A stretch of 64,000 bases of DNA, from contig CALEMB010000103.1 of assembly GCA_937902805.1 (NCBI GenBank), positions 6,095 through 70,094 on the forward strand, written 5' to 3'. Made by a program: the position numbers and the translations under genes. The number at the start of each line of letters is the position of its first letter. The stretch's first letter is position 1. The stretch is from an uncultured Bacteroidales bacterium. Lineage in GTDB: Bacteria; Bacteroidota; Bacteroidia; Bacteroidales; F082. Positions 8,888 to 61,802 of this stretch are shown here, piece after piece. The notes under the pieces are model-generated. The model had not been told where the DNA came from and did not search any database. It worked only from the letters and a program-made list of their open reading frames with translations.

Positions 8888-8919
8888 AATTACGAACTAT
8901 TTTATGTAGAATTACGAAC
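8888..8919. repeat. two direct copies of AATTACGAAC spaced 22 bp apart
   Basis: The copies are at 8888-8897 and 8910-8919. They share the ATTACGAA core with both arms of the 8824-8857 palindrome. The second copy overlaps the regulator's stop codon. Confidence 0.85.
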
Positions 8920-10627
8920 GTTTGTCGCCTTTTTCGCGCTGTTCTTCTTCGTGGGCCTGCATTTTTTTCCTTGCCCCGTTGCGCCATTTGTCCACCATGT
9001 GTACACTCTTGTTAAACAAAAGGGCTTCTTCGTCGCGCGACACGTTGAAATACGAAAGAATAAAATCCTTTTGTTCCATCTCGGTAAGTTCGGGATATTG
9101 GATGGCCAAATTTTTCCTCACATCAGGATACAGCGTATCAAATACTTTCATCAAGGCTTCCCAATGGTCATTATTGCCAAAAACGGCCTTGTTGAGTGCC
9201 GACAAGCAGATGGTGTCGCCTTTGTTGCCAAGATAGATTTCAAGTTTTCGCATGATCAGCGCGTCCTTGTTCAGTGCATCCGAAAGTTGTTGGGCATAGT
9301 CCATCACCACTTTTTCGCTGTCTTCATGCTTTTGTTGTAGTTCCTTGTTTTGCTGCATGAAGTGGAACAGTCGGGTTTTGGCTTCGGCTTCTTGCTTGCG
9401 GGTTCTCGCCAATCGTATTGTTGATAAAACTAAAGCCGCCAAGCCCAACATGGCCAAAATACTCATCACAATGATGATATGATGTCGACGGATGAGTTTC
9501 TGGTTCATCCTGTTTTGCATAGACTCGTAATCGTATCGTTTTTGGATGTTGTAAATCACTTGCTCTTGCCGTTGGCTGAATATCTGTGCAACTATTTTTT
9601 CATATTTTTCACGATAATACAAGGCCTTGGATGTGTCGCCCCGCTTTTCGGCAAAACGGGAAAGTACGTTGTATGCCGATGCCAGGGTTTCCTGTTTGGT
9701 GTGACTATTGGGCAGACTGTTTTCCAAACGGGTATAATAGACCGTAGCGGAATCCATCATCCCGGCAGCCATATAGGTTTTGCCCATGTTGAGGTAGAAC
9801 ATGAATAATGCCGATGTGTCGGAATCGGGCATGTTGACCATCATTCTCAAATTGTCGATGGCCAATTGATATTCACCCTTTTGTCGGTGGAGTACCGCAT
9901 AATTGTTCAAGGCTTTCTGTTTTGATTTGGTAGAGCCAACCATTTTGGCAAAAAACAAACTCTTTCTAAGACAAGTCTCGGCATCATCATATTGCCCGAT
10001 TAACATATATGCTGTGCCCATTATATTTTGTGTTAAGGTTCTATATATCGGTCTATTGCCAAATCCTTTGTCGGCAACCTCAAACATGGTAAGTGCTTCC
10101 TGTTCCATACCTTCATTAAGAAGCATTTTGCCAATCCAATACTGTGCCTGCGCCACAGCAAGGCTGTCGCCAATGATAGAGCCATATTCCTCCGCTTCCT
10201 TGAACGACCGCATTGCGGCCTCGTTTTCATTATAATGTTGCTGCACGAAACCGCTGTAAAGCGCGGCAAGGGCAGCTTTGCCATATTGTTTTTTCTTGGC
10301 ATAATAGGCGGCGGCACGCTCCAATTCGGGACTGGTGGAGAGGTTGGAATGGTCGTCGAAGAATTCGTTGTCCATGAGGGGTGATATGGCATCGGTGGTG
10401 CCAAACATCGCCTCTGCCTGCAACAACGCCATGTCCATGCGCTCGTGTTCGCGAAGATTCGCAGGCATGCGTAACACGCTATCTATCAAGGTTATTGTAC
10501 TGTCGGGCAAGATGTCGGCCAGCCGCTCGGCAGTGGCCACCATACGCCGAGCCTCATGCGTGGGCGTGTGACAAGCCGCACAGAACAAAAGCAATAGGAT
10601 TTCTATAATGATCAACCTTGTTTTCAT
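8912..10627 (-). CDS. membrane-spanning TPR protein with C-terminal LuxR/GerE-like HTH (putative one-component regulator)
   Basis: The track ORF is trimmed to the ATG at 10627 (MKTRLIIIEILLLLFCAAC, lipoprotein-type signal). The longer version would overlap the EF-G terminator and this gene's own promoter. It has about 400 aa of TPR-like repeats, then a TM helix HHIIIVMSILAMLGLAALVLSTI, a coiled coil and a C-terminus LTEMEQKDFILSYFNVSRDEEALLFNKSVHMVDKWRNGARKKM. Confidence 0.6.
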   Translation of the reverse strand: MKTRLIIIEILLLLFCAACHTPTHEARRMVATAERLADILPDSTITLIDSVLRMPANLREHERMDMALLQAEAMFGTTDAISPLMDNEFFDDHSNLSTSPELERAAAYYAKKKQYGKAALAALYSGFVQQHYNENEAAMRSFKEAEEYGSIIGDSLAVAQAQYWIGKMLLNEGMEQEALTMFEVADKGFGNRPIYRTLTQNIMGTAYMLIGQYDDAETCLRKSLFFAKMVGSTKSKQKALNNYAVLHRQKGEYQLAIDNLRMMVNMPDSDTSALFMFYLNMGKTYMAAGMMDSATVYYTRLENSLPNSHTKQETLASAYNVLSRFAEKRGDTSKALYYREKYEKIVAQIFSQRQEQVIYNIQKRYDYESMQNRMNQKLIRRHHIIIVMSILAMLGLAALVLSTIRLARTRKQEAEAKTRLFHFMQQNKELQQKHEDSEKVVMDYAQQLSDALNKDALIMRKLEIYLGNKGDTICLSALNKAVFGNNDHWEALMKVFDTLYPDVRKNLAIQYPELTEMEQKDFILSYFNVSRDEEALLFNKSVHMVDKWRNGARKKMQAHEEEQREKGDKRS

Positions 10628-10632
10628 GCTTG

Positions 10633-10640
10633 CAAAAATA
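10633..10640 (-). promoter_or_regulatory. -7 box (TATTTTTG) of the TPR regulator gene; predicts a leaderless mRNA
   Basis: Exact TAnnTTTG match, with only 5 nt between its G and the ATG at 10627. Confidence 0.5.
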
Positions 10641-10641
10641 T

Positions 10642-10676
10642 AAAAAAACCCCGCCACAAAAGAACTTGCGGCGGGG
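10642..10676 (-). terminator. intrinsic terminator after the EF-G paralogue
   Basis: On the minus strand, an 11-bp stem CCCCGCCGCAA/TTGTGGCGGGG (one mismatch) is followed by TTTTTTT. Confidence 0.7.
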
Positions 10677-10706
10677 AAAAATGCAATACTTATGAAAAAT
10701 ACTCTT

Positions 10707-12842
10707 TTATTCTTCTTCCTTCTGGCTCTCTTCGTACTCTTTGAGGAGGCGGTTCTGGACGTCGGTAGGCACTTGCTGGTATTCAGCATACTTCATGGTG
10801 AAGGTGCCACGGCCCGAAGTCAGCGAGCTCAGTGAGGTTGAATAGCGGTCCATCTCGGCCAACGGCACCTTGGCGTGGATGGTTTGGTAGTTGTGGTCGC
10901 TGTCCATACCCATGACGATGGCGCGACGGCCTTGCAGGTCGGTCATCACGGCACCCATGAGGTCGGCAGGCATGCGCACGTCGAGGTCGTAGATGGGTTC
11001 CATGATCTTCGGGCCAGCGTTCTTAAAGGCGGCGCTGAAGGCCATACGACCGGCAATCTTAAAGGCCATTTCGTTGGAGTCGACCGGGTGCATCTTACCA
11101 TCGTAGATGTAGACGATGATGTCGCGGGCGTAGGAACCCGTCAGCGGGCCTTGCTCTAAGCGTTCGTTGACACCCTTCAGGATGGCGGGCATGAAGCGGG
11201 CATCGATGGCACCACCGACGACGCAGTTGGCGAAGATGAGCTTACCGCCCCAAGGCAGTTCGTACTCTTGCTTGTCGCGCACCTGCAGTTCGCTCGGGTC
11301 GGTGTAACCCTCGAAGTAAGGAGCCAGTTGCATGTGCACCTCACCGAACTGACCGCTACCACCGGATTGTTTCTTGTGACGGTAGCTGGCACTGGCGCTC
11401 TTGGTGATGGTCTCACGATACGGAATCTTCGGCGAAGCCGTCTCGATGGCAATCTTATAGACGTTGTCGAAGTACCACTTCAGGGTGTTGAAGTGATATT
11501 CGCCCTGGCATTGCAGGATGTTCTGGCGCAGCTCGCGCGACATACCGGCGATGACGGTCGGGTCAGTCTTGTGGATGTCGTTGAGGATGCTGCCGAGCTT
11601 TTCGTCTTCTTGTGAGTTGACGGCCTTGACGGCAATCGAGAAGATCGGAGTCGGGAACGGAATCTCGGGGAAAGTGGCTTCACCAGCCTTGGCATCGACC
11701 AAGGAGTCACCGATACGGCCGTCCTTCAGCTTGATGGTGCAGATGATATCACCAGCGTTGACTTTCTCGACTTCTTCACGATTCTTGCCGCGGAAGACGA
11801 GCAGCTGTGACAGACGCTCCTTATTGCCCGTACGCGGGTTGATGAGGTCTTGGCTCTTCACCACGGTACCACCGTAGACGCGCATCCATGCCACGTCACC
11901 GAGGTTCTGCTCGGTGGTCACCTTGAAAATGAACAGGGCGGTCGGGTCGTCGTTGCTATTATGGAATTCCTGGCCGTTATTGGCTTTGATGGCCGGCATG
12001 TCGGCAGGCGACGGGCAGGCGTTGATGAGGAAATCCATCAGACGGGTGACACCTACGCCACGCTTGGCAGCGCCGCAAATCACGGGGAACATTTCACGGT
12101 TGACAATACCCAGATGGATACCGCGTTCCATGTCTTCCTCGCTGAGGGTCATCTCTTCGAAGAATTTCTCCATCAGAGCCTCTTCACCTTCGGCAGCGTG
12201 CTCGATGAGGTTGTTGTGCAACTCTTCGGCCTTGGCCATCTCGGCAGCGGGGATGTCCTGGATTTCGGGAGCACCATTGCCGTTCTTGAAGACCAACATC
12301 TTCATCATAATCAGGTCGATGACGGCGTTGAAGTCCTCACCAGCATTGACGGGATATTGGATGGGGGTCACCTTGTCGCCAAAATATTCTTTCAGGCTGC
12401 GGACAGTGTTGTCGAAGTTGGCGTTGCTGTGGTCGAGTTGGTTCATGAAGAACACAACGGGCTTGTTCGTGTTGGCAGCATGACGCCAGGCGTTCTCGGT
12501 AGTGGCTTCAACACCCGACTGGGCGTTCACCATGCACACGGCGATGTCGGCAGCGCTGAGGCAGCTGACGATGTCACCCGAGAAGTCGCTGAAACCGGGG
12601 GTGTCGAGGATGTTGATTTTCTTGTCGTTGTAGATGGTGTACATCATGGAAGCGTTCACCGAAATCTGACGTTCCATTTCGATGGGACGGTAGTCGGAGA
12701 CGGTGTTCTTCTCGTCGGTGCTACCTTTTCTGTTGATGAGCTTGCCTTCAAAAAGCATGTTTTCGGCAAGTGTGGTCTTACCCGACTTTGCTGCACCGAT
12801 GAGGGCAACATTGCGGATGTCTTTTGTCTGGAATTCCTTCAT
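10707..12842 (-). CDS. elongation factor G family GTPase, divergent paralogue
   Basis: 711 aa, collinear with EF-G. The motifs are G1 GAAKSGKTT, G2 region RQISV, G3 DTPGF and G4 NQLD. The N-terminus is not the canonical fusA one. Confidence 0.85.
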   Translation of the reverse strand: MKEFQTKDIRNVALIGAAKSGKTTLAENMLFEGKLINRKGSTDEKNTVSDYRPIEMERQISVNASMMYTIYNDKKINILDTPGFSDFSGDIVSCLSAADIAVCMVNAQSGVEATTENAWRHAANTNKPVVFFMNQLDHSNANFDNTVRSLKEYFGDKVTPIQYPVNAGEDFNAVIDLIMMKMLVFKNGNGAPEIQDIPAAEMAKAEELHNNLIEHAAEGEEALMEKFFEEMTLSEEDMERGIHLGIVNREMFPVICGAAKRGVGVTRLMDFLINACPSPADMPAIKANNGQEFHNSNDDPTALFIFKVTTEQNLGDVAWMRVYGGTVVKSQDLINPRTGNKERLSQLLVFRGKNREEVEKVNAGDIICTIKLKDGRIGDSLVDAKAGEATFPEIPFPTPIFSIAVKAVNSQEDEKLGSILNDIHKTDPTVIAGMSRELRQNILQCQGEYHFNTLKWYFDNVYKIAIETASPKIPYRETITKSASASYRHKKQSGGSGQFGEVHMQLAPYFEGYTDPSELQVRDKQEYELPWGGKLIFANCVVGGAIDARFMPAILKGVNERLEQGPLTGSYARDIIVYIYDGKMHPVDSNEMAFKIAGRMAFSAAFKNAGPKIMEPIYDLDVRMPADLMGAVMTDLQGRRAIVMGMDSDHNYQTIHAKVPLAEMDRYSTSLSSLTSGRGTFTMKYAEYQQVPTDVQNRLLKEYEESQKEEE

Positions 12843-12903
12843 TTTTTATCTAACTAGCTAATTATTAAATATTTACTTTTCGCGAAAAAGTCTATAGTGG
12901 GCG

Positions 12904-12911
12904 CAAAGATA
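12904..12911 (-). promoter_or_regulatory. -7 box (TATCTTTG) of the EF-G paralogue
   Basis: Exact match, 61 nt upstream of the ATG at 12842. Confidence 0.55.
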
Positions 12912-12985
12912 GGAAAAAAAGCAATAGCTTTAACGAAATTATGGTAAAACTTAAATAAATATTGGATTCCCAAAGGAATCTCCTA

Positions 12986-13960
12986 TCAAAGTGCGTCTAT
13001 CTCTTTATAGATTTTCTCCCACCGCAGGGCATCCATCTTGGTTCCCAAAACCTCAATGACGTTGGCGGCTACGATGCCACCCATTTGGCCACATTTTGTC
13101 AAGTTTTCGCCTTTAACCAAACCGGCCATGAATCCCGCAGCCCACATATCACCGGCACCATTGGTATCGATGACGTTGGCTTTCATGGGTGGAATGGTTG
13201 CCATTTCATTACCGCGCTTGATGTAGGCTCCTTTGGCTCCCACTTTCACCACGGCGATTTCGCAATGCGAGGCGAGGAAATCCAGTGCTTGAAGTGGTTC
13301 CATACCTGTCAAAGCAAAAGCTTCCTGTTCATTGGCGAACACATAATCCACGTAGTTTTCGATCAGTTGCATGAAATAATCGCGACTTTCTTCCACCACA
13401 TTGTAACTGGCCAAATCGATGGCGATTTTCAATCCAGCCTCTTTGGCGGTCATAAGGGCCTTATCCAACATGGTGGGGTTAGCGACGAGATAGCCTTCCA
13501 CATAGAAGATATCCCAACCTTGGAAAAGTTCCGGCTTAATATCGTCGGCACACATCTCTGCCGCTGCACCAAGACAGGTGGCAAAAGTGCGTTCGCCGTC
13601 GGCAGTAACAAGGGCTTGCACACGGCCTGAAGGCGTTTTGCTCTTCAACATCAATGGCTTGACATGGGTTTCTGTCATCTGCTTCTCAAAAAAACGCCCC
13701 ACTTCATCGTTGCCGATTTTGCTGAGGAAGCCCGTTTCAATGCCGAGTTGGGCGAGACCGCTCATGGTATTGGCTGCCGAGCCGCCTGAAGCCATCTGGT
13801 TGCCGAGATAGGCCAGCTTCTCCCCTATTTCCACAGAGGTTTTGGCATCGACGTAAGTCATGCTGCCTTTGGGAAGGTTGAGCTCTTTGAGGATTTGTTC
13901 ATTGTGAATCTGCGTCAGGATGTCAACTAAGGCGCTTCCTATTCCGAGTATTCTTTTCAT
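12986..13960 (-). CDS. PfkB-family carbohydrate/adenosine kinase
   Basis: 324 aa with PfkB signatures GGSAANTMSG and DTNGAGDMWAAGF. Confidence 0.85.
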   Translation of the reverse strand: MKRILGIGSALVDILTQIHNEQILKELNLPKGSMTYVDAKTSVEIGEKLAYLGNQMASGGSAANTMSGLAQLGIETGFLSKIGNDEVGRFFEKQMTETHVKPLMLKSKTPSGRVQALVTADGERTFATCLGAAAEMCADDIKPELFQGWDIFYVEGYLVANPTMLDKALMTAKEAGLKIAIDLASYNVVEESRDYFMQLIENYVDYVFANEQEAFALTGMEPLQALDFLASHCEIAVVKVGAKGAYIKRGNEMATIPPMKANVIDTNGAGDMWAAGFMAGLVKGENLTKCGQMGGIVAANVIEVLGTKMDALRWEKIYKEIDAL

Positions 13961-13997
13961 AAAGATTCGAAGATTTAAGATTCAAAATTTAAAATTG
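13961..13997 (-). promoter_or_regulatory. conserved A/T-rich 5' leader module (AATTTTAAATTTT..AAATCTTAAAT..GAATC-ATG), PfkB kinase copy
   Basis: The minus strand reads CAATTTTAAATTTTGAATCTTAAATCTTCGAATCTTT-ATG. Confidence 0.6.
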
Positions 13998-14007
13998 CTC
14001 TATTCTG

Positions 14008-14015
14008 CAAAGATA
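14008..14015 (-). promoter_or_regulatory. -7 box (TATCTTTG) of the PfkB kinase gene
   Basis: Exact match, 47 nt upstream of the ATG at 13960. Confidence 0.55.
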
Positions 14016-14124
14016 CGAATAATTTTAATGCAAGATACTGAAAAATTTCTTACTGACAATCAATAAGTTATAAATTAGTTGAAAAAATTCATCAGAAAAA
14101 GATTGCAGGTAATGGAAAAAGCCG

Positions 14125-14132
14125 TATTTTTG
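14125..14132 (+). promoter_or_regulatory. -7 box (TATTTTTG) of tRNA-Asn
   Basis: Exact match, 38 nt upstream of the tRNA 5' end, embedded in GTATTTTTGCAGCCGCA. Confidence 0.6.
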
Positions 14133-14170
14133 CAGCCGCAAAACAGAGATAAATTCTTTGACATTGTGCA

Positions 14171-14244
14171 GCCTCCTTAGCTCAGTTGGTCAGAGCATCT
14201 GACTGTTAATCAGGGGGTCTCAGGTTCAAGTCCTGAAGGGGGCG
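14171..14244 (+). tRNA. tRNA-Asn (GTT)
   Basis: I folded the cloverleaf by hand. The acceptor stem is GCCTCCT/AGGGGGC, the D stem GCTC/GAGC, the anticodon stem-loop TCTGA-CTGTTAA-TCAGG and the T arm TCAGG-TTCAAGT-CCTGA. Length is 74 nt. Confidence 0.95.
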
Positions 14245-14276
14245 CTTATTTATGTTTCATGTTATTAATTTTTTGG

Positions 14277-14312
14277 CCTCGTAGATTCTCCCCGATTCTA
14301 CGGGGTTTTTTT
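14277..14312 (+). terminator. intrinsic terminator after tRNA-Asn
   Basis: Stem CCTCGTAGA/TCTACGGGG followed by TTTTTTT. The T tract overlaps the stop codon of the convergent gene. Confidence 0.7.
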
Positions 14313-15114
14313 ATTTCTCTCCCCGTTGCATGGCCTCCATGTTGAGAATAGCCTTGACGCTTCGCAAAGGGATGATGTTTCTAAAAGGGTATAACATTCT
14401 GACGGCAAGTTTCATCCAACCATTGTAATGCACTTCCAATTGGCAATATGCCTTGCGGAAACCGAAATTGTCCATAAGGAAATCCTGAATGTTGGAATGC
14501 TCCGTTATGGTGCGGGCACTGTCGCTCACATAGTTGAACTGCAGTCCTTCGAGATAATGCTGGTTGAGGTGGTGATACAGGCCATAATAAGGATAATAGC
14601 CGCCTTTTTTGTATTCTGATTCAATGCCCGTCACCTCATATTCGCAGCAATTGTCCCACACGCGTACCGTGCAAAACCCGACCATCTGCCGTGATGCTTT
14701 TTCAAAGATGCCCCAATAGTCGAAGTTTCGTTCCTTGCAATGCTGGAGATATAGTTCAAAGACGGCAGGTGTCATCTTTTTGTCGCGGACGGCATAGTCA
14801 GCAAAGGTGGCTTCAATTATGGGGTAGGCCTTTTCTTGAATGGTCTCAAACGAGACTAGTTGATAGTCAAAATATTGTTCCGCGTGACGGACTTTGTTTC
14901 GCACTCTTGAAGGCAATGCTTCAAATCCTTCAAATTTGTCCTTGATGACATACCAAAACGAGGTTTCTTCTTGACAATCGAAACCATACGTATTCCTCAC
15001 CAACAAGCCGCCTTGCTTGAGCAACTCTTTCCATTCCTGCTCTTGAAGATGTGGCTCCTGGTGCGGTGCGCCATTGAAACGCCAGGCCTGACGATATAGG
15101 AAATAATCAGTCAT
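14311..15114 (-). CDS. GNAT/FemAB-like acyltransferase-fold protein (tentative), last gene of the polysaccharide cluster
   Basis: The track ORF is trimmed to the ATG at 15114 (MTDYFLYRQAW...), which overlaps the upstream stop as TGATG. The fold assignment is only a general sequence impression. Confidence 0.4.
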   Translation of the reverse strand: MTDYFLYRQAWRFNGAPHQEPHLQEQEWKELLKQGGLLVRNTYGFDCQEETSFWYVIKDKFEGFEALPSRVRNKVRHAEQYFDYQLVSFETIQEKAYPIIEATFADYAVRDKKMTPAVFELYLQHCKERNFDYWGIFEKASRQMVGFCTVRVWDNCCEYEVTGIESEYKKGGYYPYYGLYHHLNQHYLEGLQFNYVSDSARTITEHSNIQDFLMDNFGFRKAYCQLEVHYNGWMKLAVRMLYPFRNIIPLRSVKAILNMEAMQRGEK

Positions 15115-15878
15115 CAGAGACGTTTTTTGATGGCGTTGAAAGCATAGCTGCTGAAACATTGCAGCGCTTTGAAAAACGGTAGGTATTCGTGATGACGATA
15201 CACCGTCCATAAATCATACGAGGCTTTGAACTTGTTGGAACTTGCCGATTTTCTTCTGATTCTATAGGAAACCAAAGGCTCGTCAATGGCTTGGGCCATA
15301 TGACCGTTTTTTAGGATAGCAAGCCAAGTGGCAGTGTCTTCGCTGGTGCGAAAATTTGGGACGACGACTTCTCCAACCAAGGTTTTGTCAATCATGACTG
15401 TCGAGCAACCAATGATAGTATTGTGTAGATAGGCGTCATAGTCCAAATTGCCGGCTGTCTTGACGATTTTGTTTAAGGGTTGTCCGTTTTCATCAATACA
15501 ATCGTAGGATGAATAGGAAAAACCTACTTTATTTTCAGCCATGAACAGCAACTGGATTTCTAGTTTTTTCGGGTTCCAGATGTCATCGGCATCGAGAAAA
15601 GCCAAATATTGGCCTTGTGCCATCTTTATGCATTGGTTTCGTGAGTTGGCTATGCCGGAATGTTTTGTTTTGACCGTATAACGGATTCTGTGATCTTGTT
15701 GGCCATATTTTTCAATAATGGCGACGGTTCCATCTGTTGACGCATCGTCAACAATTAACAGTTCCCAATAAGGATATATCTGCTGTTGCACCGATTCTAT
15801 GGAATCTGCGATGTATTTTTCCATGTTGTAACATGGCATGATTACAGAAACAAGCGGTTGGCTTTCCACAGGTAACAA
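15114..15878 (-). CDS. family 2 glycosyltransferase
   Basis: Motifs VSVIMPCYNMEKYI, LLIVDDASTDGT and FLDADD. The start is non-ATG: either the TTG at 15878 or the GTG at 15869. The only ATGs lie inside the conserved motif. Confidence 0.85.
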   Translation of the reverse strand: MLPVESQPLVSVIMPCYNMEKYIADSIESVQQQIYPYWELLIVDDASTDGTVAIIEKYGQQDHRIRYTVKTKHSGIANSRNQCIKMAQGQYLAFLDADDIWNPKKLEIQLLFMAENKVGFSYSSYDCIDENGQPLNKIVKTAGNLDYDAYLHNTIIGCSTVMIDKTLVGEVVVPNFRTSEDTATWLAILKNGHMAQAIDEPLVSYRIRRKSASSNKFKASYDLWTVYRHHEYLPFFKALQCFSSYAFNAIKKRL

Positions 15879-56923: not shown

Positions 56924-56972
56924 TTTGGCACTATATTTGTCGCAAAACGCCTGGTGGCATTAAAAAAAGCAC

Positions 56973-56980
56973 TATTTTTG
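56973..56980 (+). promoter_or_regulatory. -7 box (TATTTTTG) of the four-gene LRR operon
   Basis: Exact match, 87 nt upstream of the ATG at 57068. The leader contains the conserved motif at 57021-57067. Confidence 0.55.
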
Positions 56981-57020
56981 CAATTTGTTTGTCTTCTATG
57001 AGTTATTCATTAGATGAACT

Positions 57021-57067
57021 TTGAAATACGAAGCATCAACGCAGTTAAATCTTGAAATCTTGAAAAT
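57021..57067 (+). promoter_or_regulatory. conserved 5' leader module with CGAAGCAT..CAACG insert, LRR operon copy
   Basis: It reads TTGAAATACGAAGCATCAACGCAGTTAAATCTTGAAATCTTGAAAAT-ATG. Confidence 0.6.
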
Positions 57068-57703
57068 ATGAAATCGAAAATCACAACCGTAATGATGATC
57101 CTCTTGGCCGCATTCATCACGCTGGGAGGTACCACCAGTTGCAAGAGCAAGAAAAAGCTTGCCAAGGAAGCCGCTGAGGCTGAGTATAAATCAAAAGTGG
57201 AAGAGGCAACAAGAGACTTGAACGCCATCCTTGACGACGAAACCCTTTGGACGCTTGAAGAAAAAGAGGCCCGTGTGCAGACCATTAAGGATTGGAACTT
57301 GCAAAACGCCGAAGTCGACGATCTGATTTTCCAAGCGGAGAAGAAGCTCGCTCGTGAACGTGCCCAAAAAGAAGAGGAAGCCCGTCGTGCCGCAGAAAAA
57401 CAAGAACAAGCCGCTGCCGCTGATGTTGTACTAGGACGCAACTTCAACAGCATCGCCAATGCTGGTAGCGTCAGCCAAGCCAACCGCGTCATCAACGAGA
57501 CCTTGGATATGTTTGAGTCGCCCAACGTTCCCGTGCTTATCATCATCAAGCAGAACGCTGGCTTCAACGACTACGACCGCCCGACGACCATTGAAAATTA
57601 CCTCAACTACATAAAGGACCAAAAGAAGGCCACCGAGAAGATTAGCGACATCAAGTATAACAACAACGGAAAGATTAACGAACTTGAATTGATAAAGAAA
57701 TGA
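57068..57703 (+). CDS. lipoprotein of unknown function (charged coiled coil + small C-terminal domain)
   Basis: 211 aa with lipobox LGGTTSC followed by KSKKK. It has an E/A/K-rich helix, and the C-terminal domain contains SQANRVINETLDMF. Confidence 0.6.
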   Translation: MKSKITTVMMILLAAFITLGGTTSCKSKKKLAKEAAEAEYKSKVEEATRDLNAILDDETLWTLEEKEARVQTIKDWNLQNAEVDDLIFQAEKKLARERAQKEEEARRAAEKQEQAAAADVVLGRNFNSIANAGSVSQANRVINETLDMFESPNVPVLIIIKQNAGFNDYDRPTTIENYLNYIKDQKKATEKISDIKYNNNGKINELELIKK

Positions 57704-58275
57704 AAAAGATCATAGCCACATTAGTGATAGCCTTGTACGTTGTGGGTAGTGCCATGGCACAGGACGAACTGAGTTTCGAACGCAAACAAGCCATCGACAG
57801 TCTCGCCTTGGAGAAGGTGAGAGACTTGAGCAAGTACGTTAAGATCGTCGGTTCCAAGGAGACCTCGTTCAGCGAAGCCAACCGCGTCATCGACCGTGCT
57901 GAAGAGCTCTTCATGAGTGATGCTGAAATCGGTGTGTCATCGCTGGCTGCCAACCAAATCACGTACTATCGTGTCCGCAAGTATTTCGAGCACCTAATGC
58001 GCCTCAACTATGACCGCGTCGAGATTGAATGGTACAACATCGAATACGTCAGCGACTTGCAACGTCAACCCGACGGCACCTACGTGGGCGTCATCACTAT
58101 TTTCCAAACCTTCCGCGGCTACGATGCCGAAGGCAACCTGGTGTATAAAGACACGACCAAGAAAGACATCACCGTCTACGTGAAACGCAAAGAGACTCAA
58201 ATCGGCGGTCGCACCATCGGCTTCTGGGATGTGTTGCTCGGCGACATGCGTGTCAAAGAAACCTCCAATAGATGA
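57700..58275 (+). CDS. secreted protein of unknown function
   Basis: 191 aa with signal peptide ...VGSAMAQ and the motif SEANRVIDRAEELF, similar to the upstream protein. There is an ATGA overlap with the previous gene. Confidence 0.6.
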   Translation: MKKIIATLVIALYVVGSAMAQDELSFERKQAIDSLALEKVRDLSKYVKIVGSKETSFSEANRVIDRAEELFMSDAEIGVSSLAANQITYYRVRKYFEHLMRLNYDRVEIEWYNIEYVSDLQRQPDGTYVGVITIFQTFRGYDAEGNLVYKDTTKKDITVYVKRKETQIGGRTIGFWDVLLGDMRVKETSNR

Positions 58276-59105
58276 GAATAGCTAGAAATATTATCATTCT
58301 GGCACTTACCTTTGCCTTCGTCTGGCCTGTTGCAGGTCAGACGATTGGGGATTTTAAGATGGATGAGACCGAGTTGTATGCCATGACCAAACAGATGGGC
58401 CAGTTTATGCGCAGGTTCAACTACGAGGAAGATCAATTCGGCAACAAGCTCAACCCCAAGGATCCCAAGTATCGCAGCAACGAGATGCGCCGCCAGTCGT
58501 TGCCCATCCTTTTCGATCAGGAAAAGTACGGCACACAGACAGACCTGCAACGCTATTTCATCGAGGATGTTACCAAAGGCGATTCCACCTACATGACTTT
58601 CCTCGGCGGTCGTTGGTATTCTGAGGTCTCCACCACCTTCAAATACAAAGGGAAAAACGTCCCTGTAATCTTGTTCTTGGCCGTCGAGAAAGAAGGTTTA
58701 GGCTCCAAGTGGGTGCTCACCAACGTGTATTTCTCGGAGTTCAACAAGCTCTTCCCCTCAGGAGAACTTGCCGAGAAGGAAAGACATTTCCTGCATCCCA
58801 TGAGCCACGAGTTGGACTTCATGAATATTTACAAGGCTTTCCAAGACCCCGATATCATCGAGTATTACGCTTTTAAAGATTTTACCCCCGATTACTTGAC
58901 CCTGTTTTTCTATGAAATCAAACAGGGTAACTTGGTGTTCCAACATGTCGACGGAGTGAAGTTCCACGTTCTGCAAATCAAGGACTGGTATTTCGAAGTG
59001 TCGTGGTTCAACCGTTCGGGCCTTAATTCTGGCTGGCTGATGTCGAACGTCGTCTACATGCCGGAAAAGGAAAAAACCAACCTTATCAAATTTTACCAAC
59101 CATGA
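58272..59105 (+). CDS. secreted protein of unknown function
   Basis: 277 aa with signal peptide ...VWPVAGQ and ATGA overlaps on both sides. Confidence 0.6.
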   Translation: MRIARNIIILALTFAFVWPVAGQTIGDFKMDETELYAMTKQMGQFMRRFNYEEDQFGNKLNPKDPKYRSNEMRRQSLPILFDQEKYGTQTDLQRYFIEDVTKGDSTYMTFLGGRWYSEVSTTFKYKGKNVPVILFLAVEKEGLGSKWVLTNVYFSEFNKLFPSGELAEKERHFLHPMSHELDFMNIYKAFQDPDIIEYYAFKDFTPDYLTLFFYEIKQGNLVFQHVDGVKFHVLQIKDWYFEVSWFNRSGLNSGWLMSNVVYMPEKEKTNLIKFYQP

Positions 59106-61654
59106 AAAAATTAGCCATTCTTTCCATATTGTTGTTTGGCATGGCAATGGGCAGTCAGGCCCAAAAACTTTCAAAAGACGAGGCTGCCAAGTATGATACA
59201 GAAATCAGGCAGATGCTCGTTTATTTGGAGGAGACGATGAACTTCATTGGCGATAGCGCGACGATTGCCGCGGAGAAGGAAATTGTGTTCACTGAAAGCT
59301 GGAGCAAAATTTTCATCGACGACAAAGTGCAGGTGGAGGACGACCTCGACAACAACCGCACTTCACCCATTAACAAGGATGTCCAAGCTTACCTGAAAGA
59401 CATTGACTTTTTCTTCAAATGGGCTATTTTCAAGTTTGATCTGCAAAACATCACAGATGGTGTCAATGACGATGGTAGCGTCTTTTTTAGGGTCACTTTG
59501 ACGCGGCACCTCACCGCCCAGACCATCGCGAATGAGAAGGTGGACAATGTCAGGAACCGCTTCATCGAAATCAACCTCGACCGACAGAACAATAGCATTA
59601 AGATTGCGAGTATCTACACCACCAAAATCAACGAAAAAGAAACTCGCCGCAATTGGTGGAACAGCCTGTCGATGAATTGGAAAACTCGCCTTGGCAGCGG
59701 CATCAAGCTTTACGATAGCATTCCCATGGAAAGCGTCGGGATGATTAGTGCTGTGGACTTCATGGCATCGTATCCCGTCGTCGACCCTGCCACGGGTCAA
59801 ACGGAACTCAGGGACAAGGTCTTCAAGTACGACATGGCCGAACTCGATGCCAAGCTGAAGCAGGTGACTCAAAAACAACGTCTTGACATGTCGGGCATCA
59901 GCGCAATCATTACCTTGGAACCGTTGAGCGAAATGTCGGACCTCACTTGGCTTGACATTTCCGGCACTTCCATAGAAGACCTTTCAGCCGTTCGTAACCT
60001 CAACAAGCTGAAGGTGTTGCGTGCCAACTCCACCATGATAGATGATATTTCGGCACTGAAATACAACATCACCCTTGAAGAACTTGAGGTGGCTAACACC
60101 AATGTTGAGGACCTCAGCGTGCTGACCTCATTACATGGGTTGCAGAAGCTCAATCTTGCTGAGACACAGGTCGACAGGGTTTCCCATCTGAAGCACTGTC
60201 CCAATTTGATTTCCCTTAATCTAAGCGGCACCCGTATCGCCAACATCGGCTTTTTGCAGGATTTGCTTCAACTGAAAGCCTTGGACATCAGTAACACCAC
60301 TATCCGCGATCTCAGCCCCGTCAGTAACCTGAAAGACCTGCAAAGCTTGAACATCTCAGGTTCAGCAGTCAGCAATCTGCAGCCTTTGAGTGAGCTGCAG
60401 AACCTGCGTGAGTTGTACTGCAGCAACACTACCGTCCGCGACCTCTCACCTTTGAAGAGCAACCGCCGCTTGAGTAAGATATATTGCGACCATTCCAACA
60501 TCGGCGACGAAGAAGCCAGCGCCTTCACCAAGGACAACCGCTTTACCTTGGTCATCTACGACACCGAAGCCTTGAGAACCTGGTGGAATAGCCTTCCTAT
60601 TTATTGGAAAGCCGTGTTTTCCAAGCAGATACAAGTTGACTCAGAGCCAACCACAGAGCAGCTTCACCAGATTATCAACCTTCAGGAACTCGACCTTTCG
60701 GGTAACACCTTTATGCAGAACCTGGTGCCCGTCAGCCGTTTGACCAACCTCCGTTCGCTCAATATTTCCAACACTGAGATAGGTTTTCTGCAACCCATCC
60801 AAGGTCTGGGCAACTTGGAATCGCTCAATATCTCGCATACCTACATCAGCGATCTCAAGCCCTTGCAGGACATGAGTAGCTTACGCTATCTCAACATCGA
60901 GAACACCCCCGTCAACGACCTTATGGTTTTGGCGAATGACAACAGCATCCAAGTGATTGATGCCGACAGCACCACCATCGGCAAGAGCCAAGTGCTGGCA
61001 CTGAAAGAAAAACAAAGACAAGTAACAGTGGTCTACCAAACCGAGGCCTTGATGGTTTGGTGGAACGGTCTCGACCCCATTTGGCAAGCCATCTTCCGAA
61101 ACGCCATCAGCACGCAGTCGGAGAGGCCTAATCCCTTAGAACTACACCAAATCTTGGATTTAAGAGAGCTTGAAATCACTCCCGAGTTCCCTGTCGTCTC
61201 CATCGCGCCGATAACCAACCTGATGTGGTTGGAACGCCTTACCATCAATAACCAAAGTGTGAGCGATTTGATGCCTTTGGAGGGCAAAGAGTTTTTGATC
61301 GAACTCAACGCCCAAAACAACCCCGTCAGCAGTTTAAAACCCATCGAAAGTAGCACTATGCTGGAGTTGTTGAACATCGAAAACACGCAAGTCAACGACT
61401 TGGGACCACTATCGAAGATGAATAACCTCATCACATTGAACGCCAGCGGCACCTCGGTGAAGTCGCTGAAACCTCTGTCGGGACTGATGAAACTGGAGAA
61501 CCTTTTTGTCAACAACACCAACGTGCGTAGCATCTCGCCTGTGGAAAACATCCCCACACTGAAACAGCTGAGGGTTTATAACACCAAGGTGAAGAAACGC
61601 GATGTCGAAAAACTGCAACAAAAGCGACTGGATTTGAATATCATCTATTATTGA
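59102..61654 (+). CDS. secreted leucine-rich-repeat protein (internalin-like 22-residue LRRs in three modules)
   Basis: 850 aa with signal peptide ...GMAMGSQAQ and a unique N-terminal domain of about 170 aa. Three LRR blocks follow, each introduced by a WWNSL..W spacer. Confidence 0.8.
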   Translation: MKKLAILSILLFGMAMGSQAQKLSKDEAAKYDTEIRQMLVYLEETMNFIGDSATIAAEKEIVFTESWSKIFIDDKVQVEDDLDNNRTSPINKDVQAYLKDIDFFFKWAIFKFDLQNITDGVNDDGSVFFRVTLTRHLTAQTIANEKVDNVRNRFIEINLDRQNNSIKIASIYTTKINEKETRRNWWNSLSMNWKTRLGSGIKLYDSIPMESVGMISAVDFMASYPVVDPATGQTELRDKVFKYDMAELDAKLKQVTQKQRLDMSGISAIITLEPLSEMSDLTWLDISGTSIEDLSAVRNLNKLKVLRANSTMIDDISALKYNITLEELEVANTNVEDLSVLTSLHGLQKLNLAETQVDRVSHLKHCPNLISLNLSGTRIANIGFLQDLLQLKALDISNTTIRDLSPVSNLKDLQSLNISGSAVSNLQPLSELQNLRELYCSNTTVRDLSPLKSNRRLSKIYCDHSNIGDEEASAFTKDNRFTLVIYDTEALRTWWNSLPIYWKAVFSKQIQVDSEPTTEQLHQIINLQELDLSGNTFMQNLVPVSRLTNLRSLNISNTEIGFLQPIQGLGNLESLNISHTYISDLKPLQDMSSLRYLNIENTPVNDLMVLANDNSIQVIDADSTTIGKSQVLALKEKQRQVTVVYQTEALMVWWNGLDPIWQAIFRNAISTQSERPNPLELHQILDLRELEITPEFPVVSIAPITNLMWLERLTINNQSVSDLMPLEGKEFLIELNAQNNPVSSLKPIESSTMLELLNIENTQVNDLGPLSKMNNLITLNASGTSVKSLKPLSGLMKLENLFVNNTNVRSISPVENIPTLKQLRVYNTKVKKRDVEKLQQKRLDLNIIYY

Positions 61655-61681
61655 GCCTCAAATTCGGTCTAAATCTTTTAT

Positions 61682-61716
61682 AAAGCGTTTTCTTTTGGAG
61701 GAAACGCTTTTATTTT
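61682..61716 (+). terminator. intrinsic terminator after the LRR gene
   Basis: Perfect 9-bp stem AAAGCGTTT/AAACGCTTT followed by TATTTTG. Confidence 0.6.
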
Positions 61717-61745: not shown

Positions 61746-61802
61746 GAATTTTAAATTTCAAATGCGAAGCATTCAACGAAGTTAAATCTTAAATACAGAA
61801 TC
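61746..61802 (+). promoter_or_regulatory. conserved 5' leader module with CGAAGCAT..CAACG insert, ptb copy
   Basis: It reads GAATTTTAAATTTCAAATGCGAAGCATTCAACGAAGTTAAATCTTAAATACAGAATC-ATG. Confidence 0.6.

Follow-up and report, generated by a model that had tools for sequence, protein, structure and literature searches.

Four co-directional genes (P1 to P4) of an uncultured Bacteroidales bacterium encode a lipoprotein and three proteins with signal peptides, and raise the question of what these products do together. Searches of Pfam, NCBIfam and PADLOC assign P1 to P3 and the N-terminal domain of P4 to no family, and the PDB offers no sequence match. We analysed the genes within the 64,000-nt stretch of DNA that carries them (henceforth the window) and compared them with related loci.

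Layout and expression of the operon

The elements of the unit are listed in Table 1. The four reading frames and their three ATGA stop/start overlaps (57700, 58272 and 59102) are present as the first-pass annotation had described them. So is a candidate promoter box at 56973, where we read TAnnTTTG, the motif that acts as the -7 element in Bacteroides promoters; a second box lies further 5′, and orthologous loci keep a box of this type 40-60 nt 5′ of the P1 start. The terminator also held up, with a hairpin of -14 kcal/mol (z = -4.59) that was equalled by 0 of 200 shuffles. The leader had been called structured and is not: its minimum free energy is -8.9 kcal/mol versus -12.3 for shuffles (z = +1.26), an Rfam search gave no match, and orthologous leaders are ~40 nt shorter. 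A 25-nt motif inside the leader (57029-57053) is repeated 5′ of ptb (61765-61790), giving two copies with none expected; it is strain-specific and was found in none of the related loci.

Table 1. Features of the four-gene operon in the window
Feature	Positions	Strand	Description
Promoter region	56932-56980	+	Two Bacteroidota-type TAnnTTTG boxes, read from sequence
TAnnTTTG box TATATTTG	56932-56939	+	Sequence read
TAnnTTTG box TATTTTTG	56973-56980	+	Sequence read
5′ leader	56981-57067	+	Without significant structure; contains the 25-nt motif
P1 gene	57068-57703	+	ORF, 211 aa, lipoprotein
P2 gene	57700-58275	+	ORF, 191 aa, SPI signal, periplasmic (predicted)
P3 gene	58272-59105	+	ORF, 277 aa, SPI signal, periplasmic (predicted)
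P4 gene	59102-61654	+	ORF, 850 aa, SPI signal, periplasmic (predicted)
P4 module 1, WWNxL cap and 22-residue LRRs	~59654-60511	+	WWN at residue 185
P4 module 2, WWNxL cap and 22-residue LRRs	~60581-61021	+	WWN at residue 494
P4 module 3, WWNxL cap and 22-residue LRRs	~61058-61651	+	WWN at residue 653
Intrinsic terminator	61682-61716	+	Hairpin 61682-61710, 13 bp, then T-run

The overlaps had been taken as strict translational coupling. Although the window has all three, only that between P3 and P4 is widely kept among 72 orthologous loci (60/72, versus 22/72 for P1-P2 and 19/72 for P2-P3), so the coupling argument for stoichiometric assembly is weak at the other junctions. The operon is covered by metatranscriptome contigs from the rumen, one of which crosses the P2/P3 junction. 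The four-gene unit, which is flanked by LigT on the 5′ side and ptb-buk on the 3′ side, is a real, expressed operon of a rumen Bacteroidales bacterium.

Domains, paralogy and location of the products

The lipobox of P1, LGGTTSC, ends at Cys25 (57140-57142) and is followed by KSKKK, as annotated; TTSC is found in 43 of 75 orthologues, followed by KSKKR, KSKKK or SSKKK. Residues 26-112 form a charged stretch of ~90 residues that is probably a helical or coiled-coil tether. The remainder of P1 (residues 113-211, 57404-57700) is a half-length NTF2-like domain that profile comparison identifies as a paralogue of the N-terminal half of P2 (hhalign 94%, E 1.2e-7, 80 columns), and the P1 HMM cross-matches P2 proteins (E 2e-6 to 4e-4). 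Full-length P1 has no family in Pfam or NCBIfam. The motif reported for the first two proteins was recovered as the peptide SQANRVIN/SEANRVID (BLASTP E 0.01), and the DNA beneath it is a 26-nt repeat with 92% identity.

P2, with an SPI cleavage site between AMA and Q21, has a single domain, predicted to be an NTF2-like alpha+beta cone. In its AlphaFold2 model (pLDDT 88.8) three helices pack on a long, curved antiparallel sheet. Foldseek matched the model to the scytalone-dehydratase-like structure 3ef8 in the PDB (E 5e-5), then to LinA and the CaMKII hub, with a probability of 1.00. On this model P2 is NTF2-like, and only the fold is held in common with the superfamily (SnoaL/scytalone dehydratase, LinA, CaMKII hub): TM-scores on the query are 0.38-0.46, identities are 10-16%, and the P2 sequence has no match in Pfam, NTF2-clan families included, or in the PDB. 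The operon's domain also differs in being exported, in having three paralogous forms, one of them truncated, and in acting as the N-terminal handle of repeat proteins. The NTF2-like fold also serves enzymes and binders of small molecules, and Tyr, Asp and Lys residues are conserved in P2; this observation runs counter to the sensor role considered below.

P2 is the operon's most conserved product. It is 65% identical between Bacteroidia and Cytophagia, and its median identity in the far group is 79%, versus 38-61% for the other products. For a periplasmic protein of this small size such cross-class identity is uncommonly high, which points to numerous contact surfaces. Y128, Q136, Y149, D151 and K155, on the long beta-strands, are invariant or nearly so.

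P3 is an alpha/beta protein with SPI cleavage between VAG and Q23. The check by AlphaFold and Foldseek that the first-pass annotation had proposed was run on P2 and P3, and P3 gave a confident model (pLDDT 92.2, pTM 0.82) without a fold match. Foldseek retrieved nothing from the PDB at E ≤ 0.001, with query-normalised TM-scores ≤ 0.20, and likewise no convincing match from BFVD; sequence and profile searches of the PDB were also negative. The modelled fold has no solved or viral-predicted match. By sequence P3 matches 795 clusters at 50% identity (E ≤ 0.001), and it has conserved RFN (48-50) and HPMSHELDF (175-183) motifs.

P4 is cleaved by SPI between SQA and Q21 and begins with an NTF2-like domain (residues 21-190, 59162-59671) that aligns to P2 (hhalign 95.5%, E 1.4e-8, 140 columns). 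A similar unit of ~110 residues had been suspected in all four proteins. Profile comparison shows paralogous units in three of them, namely the C-terminal part of P1, the whole of P2 and the N-domain of P4; P3 is unrelated to these (hhalign E 0.045-0.2, no match). The rest of P4 bears out its description as a large LRR protein, with LRR_4 matches in 10 stretches (E 3.7e-47). The repeats are internalin-type, sharing a 22-residue length and the LxxLxLxxNxL core with class 1 internalins (InlA, InlH) and other bacterial LRR proteins. Unlike internalins, P4 lacks the internalin cap, an Ig-like inter-repeat region and a cell-wall anchor, and its partial matches to internalin models score 130-150 bits, far below the cut-offs of at least 1050. 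It also comes from a diderm, is without an outer-membrane export signal, and has three LRR blocks, each with its own WWNxL cap, behind the NTF2-like domain. The concave face of the repeats is not markedly conserved or markedly variable (0.57 versus 0.54 in the remainder), so no ligand signature is visible, a further point against the sensor role considered below.

The three annotated signal peptides were all found, and the family alignments of P2, P3 and P4 show little or no variation in the Gln at +1. The annotation had seen no T9SS C-terminal domain, and Pfam models detected neither this domain nor a beta-barrel in any of the four proteins. Because of these absences, and because the residues after the lipidated Cys of P1 are basic, not acidic, a complex of these proteins is most likely periplasmic. 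Of the earlier suggestion of an envelope or surface complex with an LRR platform, the surface half finds no support in the same features; an uncharacterised envelope complex that presents such a platform is the most economical reading.

Synteny and gene neighbourhoods of the cassette

Synteny had been named as a check, and the order P1-P2-P3-P4 was found in 77 of 80 species-level loci, the other three being cut by contig ends, while the flanking genes vary. Limibacter armeniacum, a member of a different class (Cytophagia), also has this cassette, as does one further lineage. Among the distant loci searched, 54 have an ORF with a P2 domain and 59 a P3 ORF; where both are present, the P2 gene is immediately 5′ of P3 in nearly all. 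Distant P3 proteins are only ~25-35% identical. In at least 30 distant loci P3 is followed by a protein with a P4 N-domain and a variable C-terminus (TPR, WG_beta_rep or FGE-sulfatase, the last of which corresponds to COG1262), and free-living marine and soil lineages have TPR in place of LRR. The LRR part of P4 is thus an exchangeable module.

Ser/Thr kinase and/or PP2C genes lie beside the cassette in several distant loci (L082, L094, L100, L114, L120, L137/138 and L148). Most of these products are bitopic with periplasmic tails, and in L082 the genes form one tightly packed co-directional array, P2-P3-P4-PP2C-STK. A gene for an FHA protein is operonic with the cassette among the distant relatives, T6SS-iii genes adjoin it in three loci (L129, L133 and L098), secreted caspase-like proteins occur nearby in two (L141 and L146), and L148 has a multi-AAA+ giant protein beside it. 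Some distant loci (L087, L088, L093, L118 and L128) are without kinase or T6SS neighbours. Neither the window nor any of the 81 LRR-type loci (~7 kb on each side) has a kinase, PP2C, caspase or T6SS gene, so the link to signalling is borrowed from the distant relatives.

The TssN/O/P/Q/R membrane complex of T6SS-iii resembles the cassette in consisting of Bacteroidota-specific envelope proteins (PMC10781749), and in some loci both stand beside T6SS-iii core genes. TssN has five transmembrane segments, TssQ, TssO and TssP have one each, and TssR is a vWA lipoprotein (PMC10781749). The architectures of P1 to P4 are unlike these, Tss Pfam models match none of them, and most cassettes lie outside T6SS loci.

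Candidate roles of the putative complex

A functional parallel is the threonine-phosphorylation pathway of the Pseudomonas aeruginosa H1-T6SS, TagQRST-PpkA-PppA-Fha1, in which the outer-membrane lipoprotein TagQ holds the periplasmic COG1262 member TagR upstream of PpkA; this tethered pair acts above a bitopic Ser/Thr kinase, a PP2C and an FHA protein, and controls the T6SS (PMC13584744). Distant cassettes are operonic with the same types of kinase, PP2C and FHA protein or stand beside T6SS-iii genes, and one relative's P4 N-domain bears an FGE-sulfatase, the domain type of TagR. However, no part of P1 to P4 is homologous to TagQ or TagR in sequence or fold, that pathway has no equivalent of P3 or of the NTF2-like domains proposed as docking units, and a TagS/T-like ABC transporter was not seen with the cassette. 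In the window, the cassette carries LRRs, and genes for a kinase, a phosphatase, an FHA protein or a T6SS are absent in cis.

By this analogy we tentatively propose, at somewhat less than an even chance, that the operon encodes a lipoprotein-tethered periplasmic complex, an envelope sensor, co-receptor or adaptor that presents a variable ligand-binding solenoid. P1 would supply the lipid anchor and a helical spacer of ~90 residues, the NTF2-like domains of P1, P2 and P4 would be docking units that assemble with P3, and the three LRR domains of P4 would be the working surface. The phylum keeps the P2-P3 pair together with the P4 N-domain and swaps the module fused to that domain, so the complex would be a scaffold with a variable periplasmic solenoid. 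A sensor or co-receptor feeding a transmembrane signalling or secretion machine seems the most likely role, because distant cassettes are operonic with Ser/Thr kinases, PP2C and FHA proteins and three adjoin T6SS-iii genes. The analysis demonstrates the genes and their transcription, the export signals, the paralogy and folds, the synteny and the neighbourhoods; mutual binding of the four proteins, their periplasmic residence and any signalling by the window's LRR-type cassette, given that no kinase or T6SS gene accompanies it in cis, are inferred.

It is less probable, yet to be weighed seriously, that the complex is a structural scaffold that braces or organises the periplasm (outer membrane-peptidoglycan spacing, docking of envelope machines) without signalling; the kinase and T6SS genes beside distant cassettes would then reflect different uses of a generic adaptor. 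The LRR-type cassette does stand alone in 81 loci, it has its own conserved promoter, P1 has a long helical spacer, and the extreme conservation of P2 is expected of a structural hub. However, none of the four proteins has a peptidoglycan-binding domain (OmpA, LysM or SPOR), a variable solenoid favours recognition over bracing, and chance hardly explains kinase and PP2C genes that recur within the same operons.

We consider it improbable that P2 and its paralogues act on an envelope metabolite as NTF2-like binders or enzymes (SnoaL-, scytalone-dehydratase- or LinA-like, or MlaC-like lipid carriers), P4 being accessory to them. NTF2-like enzymes are the best Foldseek matches of P2 and its five strand residues are near-invariant, but the similarity is confined to the fold, and docking better suits both the half domain of P1 and the P4 domain that is the N-terminal handle of exchangeable repeat proteins. 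LRR adhesins are known from oral and gut Bacteroidota, and the internalin-type repeats of P4 would suit a cell-surface complex showing LRRs to host or neighbour cells, a very doubtful reading given that KSKKK replaces an acidic lipoprotein export signal, the T9SS domain and barrel are absent, and free-living lineages carry TPR instead. A role in anti-phage defence or inter-bacterial conflict, as a system whose components are secreted, is the least probable: caspase-like, multi-AAA+ and T6SS genes neighbour distant relatives, but PADLOC models match none of the four proteins, every part of the window's cassette is exported and none has an effector-like domain, and its LigT and ptb-buk context is unlike a defence island.

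The operon encodes an undescribed, Bacteroidota-wide set of proteins predicted to be periplasmic, and these products may form a membrane-tethered periplasmic complex specific to this phylum.

Operon architecture, expression and conservation

The window carries four consecutive genes, P1 to P4 in gene order, in which P1 is a lipoprotein and P4 an LRR protein. Overlaps of the form ATGA were confirmed, with stop and start shared at all three junctions. The first-pass annotation read strict translational coupling into this arrangement; among 72 loci, the overlap is widely retained at P3-P4 only (60 of 72, against 22 for P1-P2 and 19 for P2-P3). The proposed promoter coincides with a TAnnTTTG box, and in many species the orthologous locus has a similar box 40-60 nt 5' of where P1 starts. 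The terminator was also borne out, its hairpin being much more stable than shuffled sequences. The claim of a structured leader fails because shuffled versions fold more stably than the leader itself (z = +1.26) and an Rfam search matched it to no family, and the idea of a riboswitch or structured leader was dropped. About 40 nt of the leader are an insertion peculiar to the strain, as judged by comparison with related loci.

Features of the operon and its surroundings (window coordinates)
Feature	Position	Strand	Detail
Second TAnnTTTG box	56932-56939		upstream of P1
Promoter box TAnnTTTG, Bacteroidota-type	56973-56980		upstream of P1
25-26-nt motif, operon leader copy	57029-57053
P1 ORF	57068-57703	+	211 aa
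26-nt direct repeat, gene 1 copy	57471-57496
P2 ORF	57700-58275	+	191 aa
26-nt direct repeat, gene 2 copy	57869-57894
P3 ORF	58272-59105	+	277 aa
P4 ORF	59102-61654	+	850 aa
Terminator	61682-61716		13-bp hairpin and T-run; z = -4.6 against shuffles
25-26-nt motif, ptb leader copy	61765-61790
Phosphate butyryltransferase and butyrate kinase genes (ptb-buk)	61803-63916		downstream of the operon

Contigs from rumen metatranscriptomes cover the operon, and one of them crosses the P2/P3 junction. Depth peaks over P2, in part because the conserved P2 also attracts transcripts of related species. As a separate observation, a 25-26-nt motif, CGAAGCAT(T)CAACG(C/A)AGTTAAATCTT, is found in both the operon leader and the ptb leader, each time 3' of a TAnnTTTG box, where the number of copies expected by chance is 0. 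The motif is strain-specific, since none of the related loci has it. Metatranscriptome assemblies fuse its two sites (61785 to 57041), and in most rumen metatranscriptome runs the contig depth of ptb-buk exceeds the depth over most of the operon by a factor in the tens to hundreds.

Relatives of P3 form 795 clusters at 50% identity (E ≤ 0.001), and a motif scan in which one genome stood for each species confirmed at least 585 stretches encoding one. The four-gene order extends well beyond the window: among the best 80 of these loci, 77 have P1-P2-P3-P4 and the remaining three are truncated by contig ends. The flanking genes, LigT upstream and ptb-buk downstream, are kept in the closest relatives only. 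The cassette belongs to uncultured Bacteroidales of the rumen and gut, among them Candidatus Limimorpha and MAGs with the label Lentimicrobiaceae. The same four genes occur in the cultured Limibacter armeniacum (class Cytophagia; L084, 7439-12472) and one further lineage, with 65% P2 identity across the two classes. Median identities in the far group are 79% for P2, 61% for P3, 49% for the P4 N-terminal domain (P4N, residues 21-190), 48% for P1 and 38% for the LRR part. The sole adjacency break among the best 80 loci is a 4.5-kb insertion between P2 and P3 in one species (L068, ~2474-7001).

Export signals, folds and a shared domain

The signal peptide of P1 ends in LGGTTSC, with Cys25 followed by KSKKK, as first annotated. 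Orthologues retain the lipobox, Cys25 and the basic residues after it, which read KSKKR, KSKKK or SSKKK. The three other products have the signal peptides ascribed to them, of signal-peptidase-I type (AMA↓Q in P2, VAG↓Q in P3, SQA↓Q in P4), and in family alignments the Gln at +1 is invariant or nearly so. Bacteroidota favour Gln at this position after signal-peptidase-I cleavage. Surface lipoproteins of the phylum carry an acidic export-signal consensus; this hallmark is absent after Cys25 of P1, which has KSKKK instead. A Pfam search of P1-P4 found no T9SS sorting domain (Por_Secre_tail or CHU_C) and no beta-barrel, and P4 ends in ...KRLDLNIIYY. Because the T9SS domain, the beta-barrel and the acidic signal are all missing, we infer that the four proteins are probably periplasmic, with P1 lipid-anchored.

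No model in Pfam, NCBIfam or PADLOC matched P1, P2, P3 or residues 1-190 of P4, and sequence and profile searches of the PDB with P1-P3 and the P4 N-domain were empty. The AlphaFold2 model of P2 (pLDDT 88.8, secondary-structure order H-H-E-E-H-E-E-E-E) predicts an NTF2-like alpha+beta cone, in which 5-6 strands make a curved antiparallel sheet and the N-terminal helices pack against it. Foldseek matches it to many NTF2-like structures, the best being scytalone-dehydratase-like proteins, LinA and the CaMKII hub (probability 1.00, best E 5e-5). P4N and the P1 C-terminus (P1C, residues 113-211) are tied to the NTF2-like P2 through hhalign homology. With profiles that include distant relatives, the alignment of P2 with P4N spans 140 columns (E 1.4e-8, probability 95.5%) and that with P1C 80 columns (E 1.2e-7, 94%). 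Sequences from distant loci had to enter the profiles before this paralogy became clear, and shallow profiles gave merely a weak P1-P2 signal (E 0.0036). The family HMMs of P1, P2 and P4N also detect one another's members. A similar unit of ~110 aa had been suspected in all four proteins; the hhalign links uphold it for P1C, P2 and P4N and leave P3 unrelated (E 0.045-0.2), so that three of the four products hold one common domain, of which P1 retains only the N-terminal half.

Among curated NTF2-clan families (SnoaL, DUF4440, MlaC and others), none scored above threshold in Pfam or NCBIfam. The only signal, to GFO_1090, was weak (4 of 14 members, E 6e-4 at best) and never rose beyond this level; we found no paper mentioning that family. 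The motif noted in the first two proteins proved real: SxANRVI is the sole pairwise BLASTP similarity among P1-P4. At the nucleotide level, genes 1 and 2 share a 26-nt direct repeat (92% identical) that encodes SQANRVIN/SEANRVID, helix 2 of the NTF2-like domain, and so high an identity between paralogues that have otherwise diverged may be a trace of local gene conversion.

The AlphaFold2 model of P3, built with 82 diverse homologues, reached a pLDDT of 92 and a pTM of 0.82. Foldseek searches of the PDB and BFVD with this model returned no match at E ≤ 0.001, and the weak ones had query-normalised TM-scores ≤ 0.20. The predicted fold has no counterpart among solved or viral-predicted structures, and P3 has no internal duplication (E 0.049).

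Residues 190-850 of P4 form three blocks of internalin-type 22-residue LRRs, and a WWNxL cap motif stands in front of every block (residues 185, 494 and 653). P4 aligns with internalins through the LRR part only, without a match over the whole protein (cap, LRR, inter-repeat, anchor). Its score is 150.8 bits for InlA, where the cut-off is 1600, and 148 bits for InlH, where it is 1050; both are class 1 internalins, and with ~150 bits against cut-offs above 1000 it is therefore no internalin. The concave LRR face shows neither special conservation nor special variability.

Distant loci: a constant core, exchangeable modules and their neighbours

Beyond the family of the window, P3 has another large subfamily, at ~30% identity, as well as several that are smaller; these we sampled from metagenomes and by look-ups. 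Among the loci searched, 54 have an ORF with the P2 domain and 59 a P3 ORF, and in nearly all loci holding both the P2 gene is immediately 5' of P3. The P2 domain is frequently the C-terminus of a longer protein. At least 30 loci encode, after P3, a secreted protein led by P4N; the module that P4N carries is most commonly TPR (in proteins of ~950 aa), with WG repeats and FGE-sulfatase as others. This survey identifies P2, P3 and P4N as the constant core and the solenoid or ligand-binding module as exchangeable. One locus (L087) has two paralogous P4N-TPR proteins (8507-11350, 947 aa; 12369-15215, 948 aa) after a single P2-P3 pair, an arrangement which implies that one core may serve more than one solenoid subunit. 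Another, from a human gut metagenome (L148, 2686-16609), has the reversed order of a Sel1 protein, a P3-like and a P2-like protein, and further 3' come a double-zinc-ribbon protein, a kinase of 977 aa whose C-terminal part has several TM helices, and a multi-AAA+ giant of >1600 aa.

Genes for Ser/Thr kinases, PP2C phosphatases or both lie ≤ 9 kb away in distant loci L082, L094, L100, L114, L120, L137/138 and L148. In L082 the genes P2-P3-P4(TPR)-PP2C-kinase are tightly packed and co-directional, with an FHA gene lying opposite. In most of the neighbouring kinases and phosphatases a single TM helix lies C-terminal to the catalytic domain, and the tail beyond it is periplasmic. Genes of T6SS-iii (TssN, TssK, TssO, ClpV, TssB, TssC, Hcp and VgrG) adjoin the cassette in three loci: it heads a co-directional T6SS-iii cluster in L129 and L133, and TssK lies a few kilobases upstream of it in L098. 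The tally is about seven kinase/phosphatase and three T6SS cases in ~17 non-redundant loci with long flanks, which we estimate to be far above chance, taking as baseline the presumed rarity of such genes in Bacteroidota genomes rather than a computed control. Two loci, L141 and L146, encode secreted caspase-like proteins ahead of the cassette; no caspase-like gene is near the LRR-type cassette in the window or in 81 LRR-type loci.

Several further observations concern these neighbourhoods. L094 has one more P2-like gene (217 aa), flanked by two bitopic Ser/Thr kinase genes (3935-7413, minus strand) and divergent from its main P2-P3-P4(TPR) cassette. By eye, the caspase-like C-terminus resembled P1C, a candidate relationship that we rejected on profile comparison (E 0.056 against P2, 0.36 against P1C). 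The 90%-identity cluster of a 196-aa P2-like Muribaculaceae protein also contains dissimilar 408-aa 'caspase family' proteins, apparently an artefact of clustering or of the look-up. PorP/SprF-family outer-membrane proteins directly adjoin the cassette in L118 (11695-12690) and L120 (4002-8185), and the one in L120 forms a pair with a CHU_C T9SS cargo protein. Such adjacency may be coincidental.

Proposed function and comparison with known systems

In the best-supported reading, the P1 lipoprotein would tether a periplasmic complex, the paralogous NTF2-like domains and P3 would build its conserved core, and P4 would display a variable binding solenoid. TagQ/TagR, from the threonine-phosphorylation pathway of the Pseudomonas T6SS, would come closest as a functional analogue; in that pathway the outer-membrane lipoprotein TagQ holds periplasmic TagR (COG1262), which activates the bitopic kinase PpkA (PMC13584744). 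P1, with its conserved lipobox and Cys25, is a candidate for a TagQ-like anchor. An FGE-sulfatase domain, the family that we take COG1262 of TagR to represent, was not found by Pfam in P1-P4 and is present in the P4 slot of distant L131 only. Unlike the PpkA/PppA/Fha arrangement, no bitopic kinase, PP2C or FHA gene is adjacent in the window or in 81 LRR-type loci; the kinase/PP2C part of the Tag module is found in distant L082, L094, L100, L114, L120, L137 and L148. The Tag module is part of a T6SS cluster, whereas the window encodes no T6SS protein and only L098, L129 and L133 have the cassette among such genes. The likeness lies in working logic, not in membership, and there is no homology to TagQ/TagR. 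The T6SS-iii membrane complex of Bacteroidota is TssNOPQR (PMC10781749). P1-P4 have no Tss Pfam match, no homology to these subunits and none of their architectures; the TssN and TssO models do find the genuine neighbours in L129.

A broader reading, which we regard as rather unlikely, is that P2, P3 and P4N are a phylum-wide, undescribed family of periplasmic co-receptors, whose NTF2-like/P3 core would dock exchangeable solenoids (LRR, TPR, WG, FGE-sulfatase) and relay envelope or cell-contact cues to bitopic Ser/Thr kinases and PP2C phosphatases. In some lineages such co-receptors would gate T6SS-iii firing or secreted caspase-like proteases, as a Bacteroidota counterpart of the TagQRST-PpkA pathway made of unrelated parts. 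The window operon would then be a stand-alone sensor with its kinase encoded elsewhere. Within the best-supported reading, too, the LRR-type operon may signal via such a distant kinase gene, or it may be purely structural; no kinase, PP2C or T6SS gene lies beside the LRR-type cassette in the 64-kb window or in 81 LRR-type loci. One rival is accordingly a structural scaffold. A second rival has the NTF2-like proteins handling a small molecule or lipid; NTF2-like enzymes (scytalone dehydratase, KSI, LinA) have catalytic Tyr/Asp/His in the cone pocket, and the positions conserved in P2 alignments include Y, D, K and Q, at most candidates for such a role. A cell-surface adhesin complex has to be weighed with the predicted periplasmic location of all four proteins, and a conflict system with the PADLOC defence models, of which 0 families were detected in them.

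We found no curated family, solved structure or paper describing P1-P4 or such a module. We rate the cassette as new as a system, assembled from familiar blocks (a lipoprotein anchor, the NTF2-like fold, LRR) and with a putative function. It is present in hundreds of species, and its protein families are missing from curated libraries. Almost nothing is known of how the Bacteroidota T6SS-iii is controlled post-translationally or senses its targets, and the roles of eukaryote-like Ser/Thr kinases in the phylum are largely unexplored; this small gene set offers a concrete and testable way in. If the signalling idea fails, the cassette would still encode a new conserved periplasmic complex in a dominant phylum of the gut and rumen.
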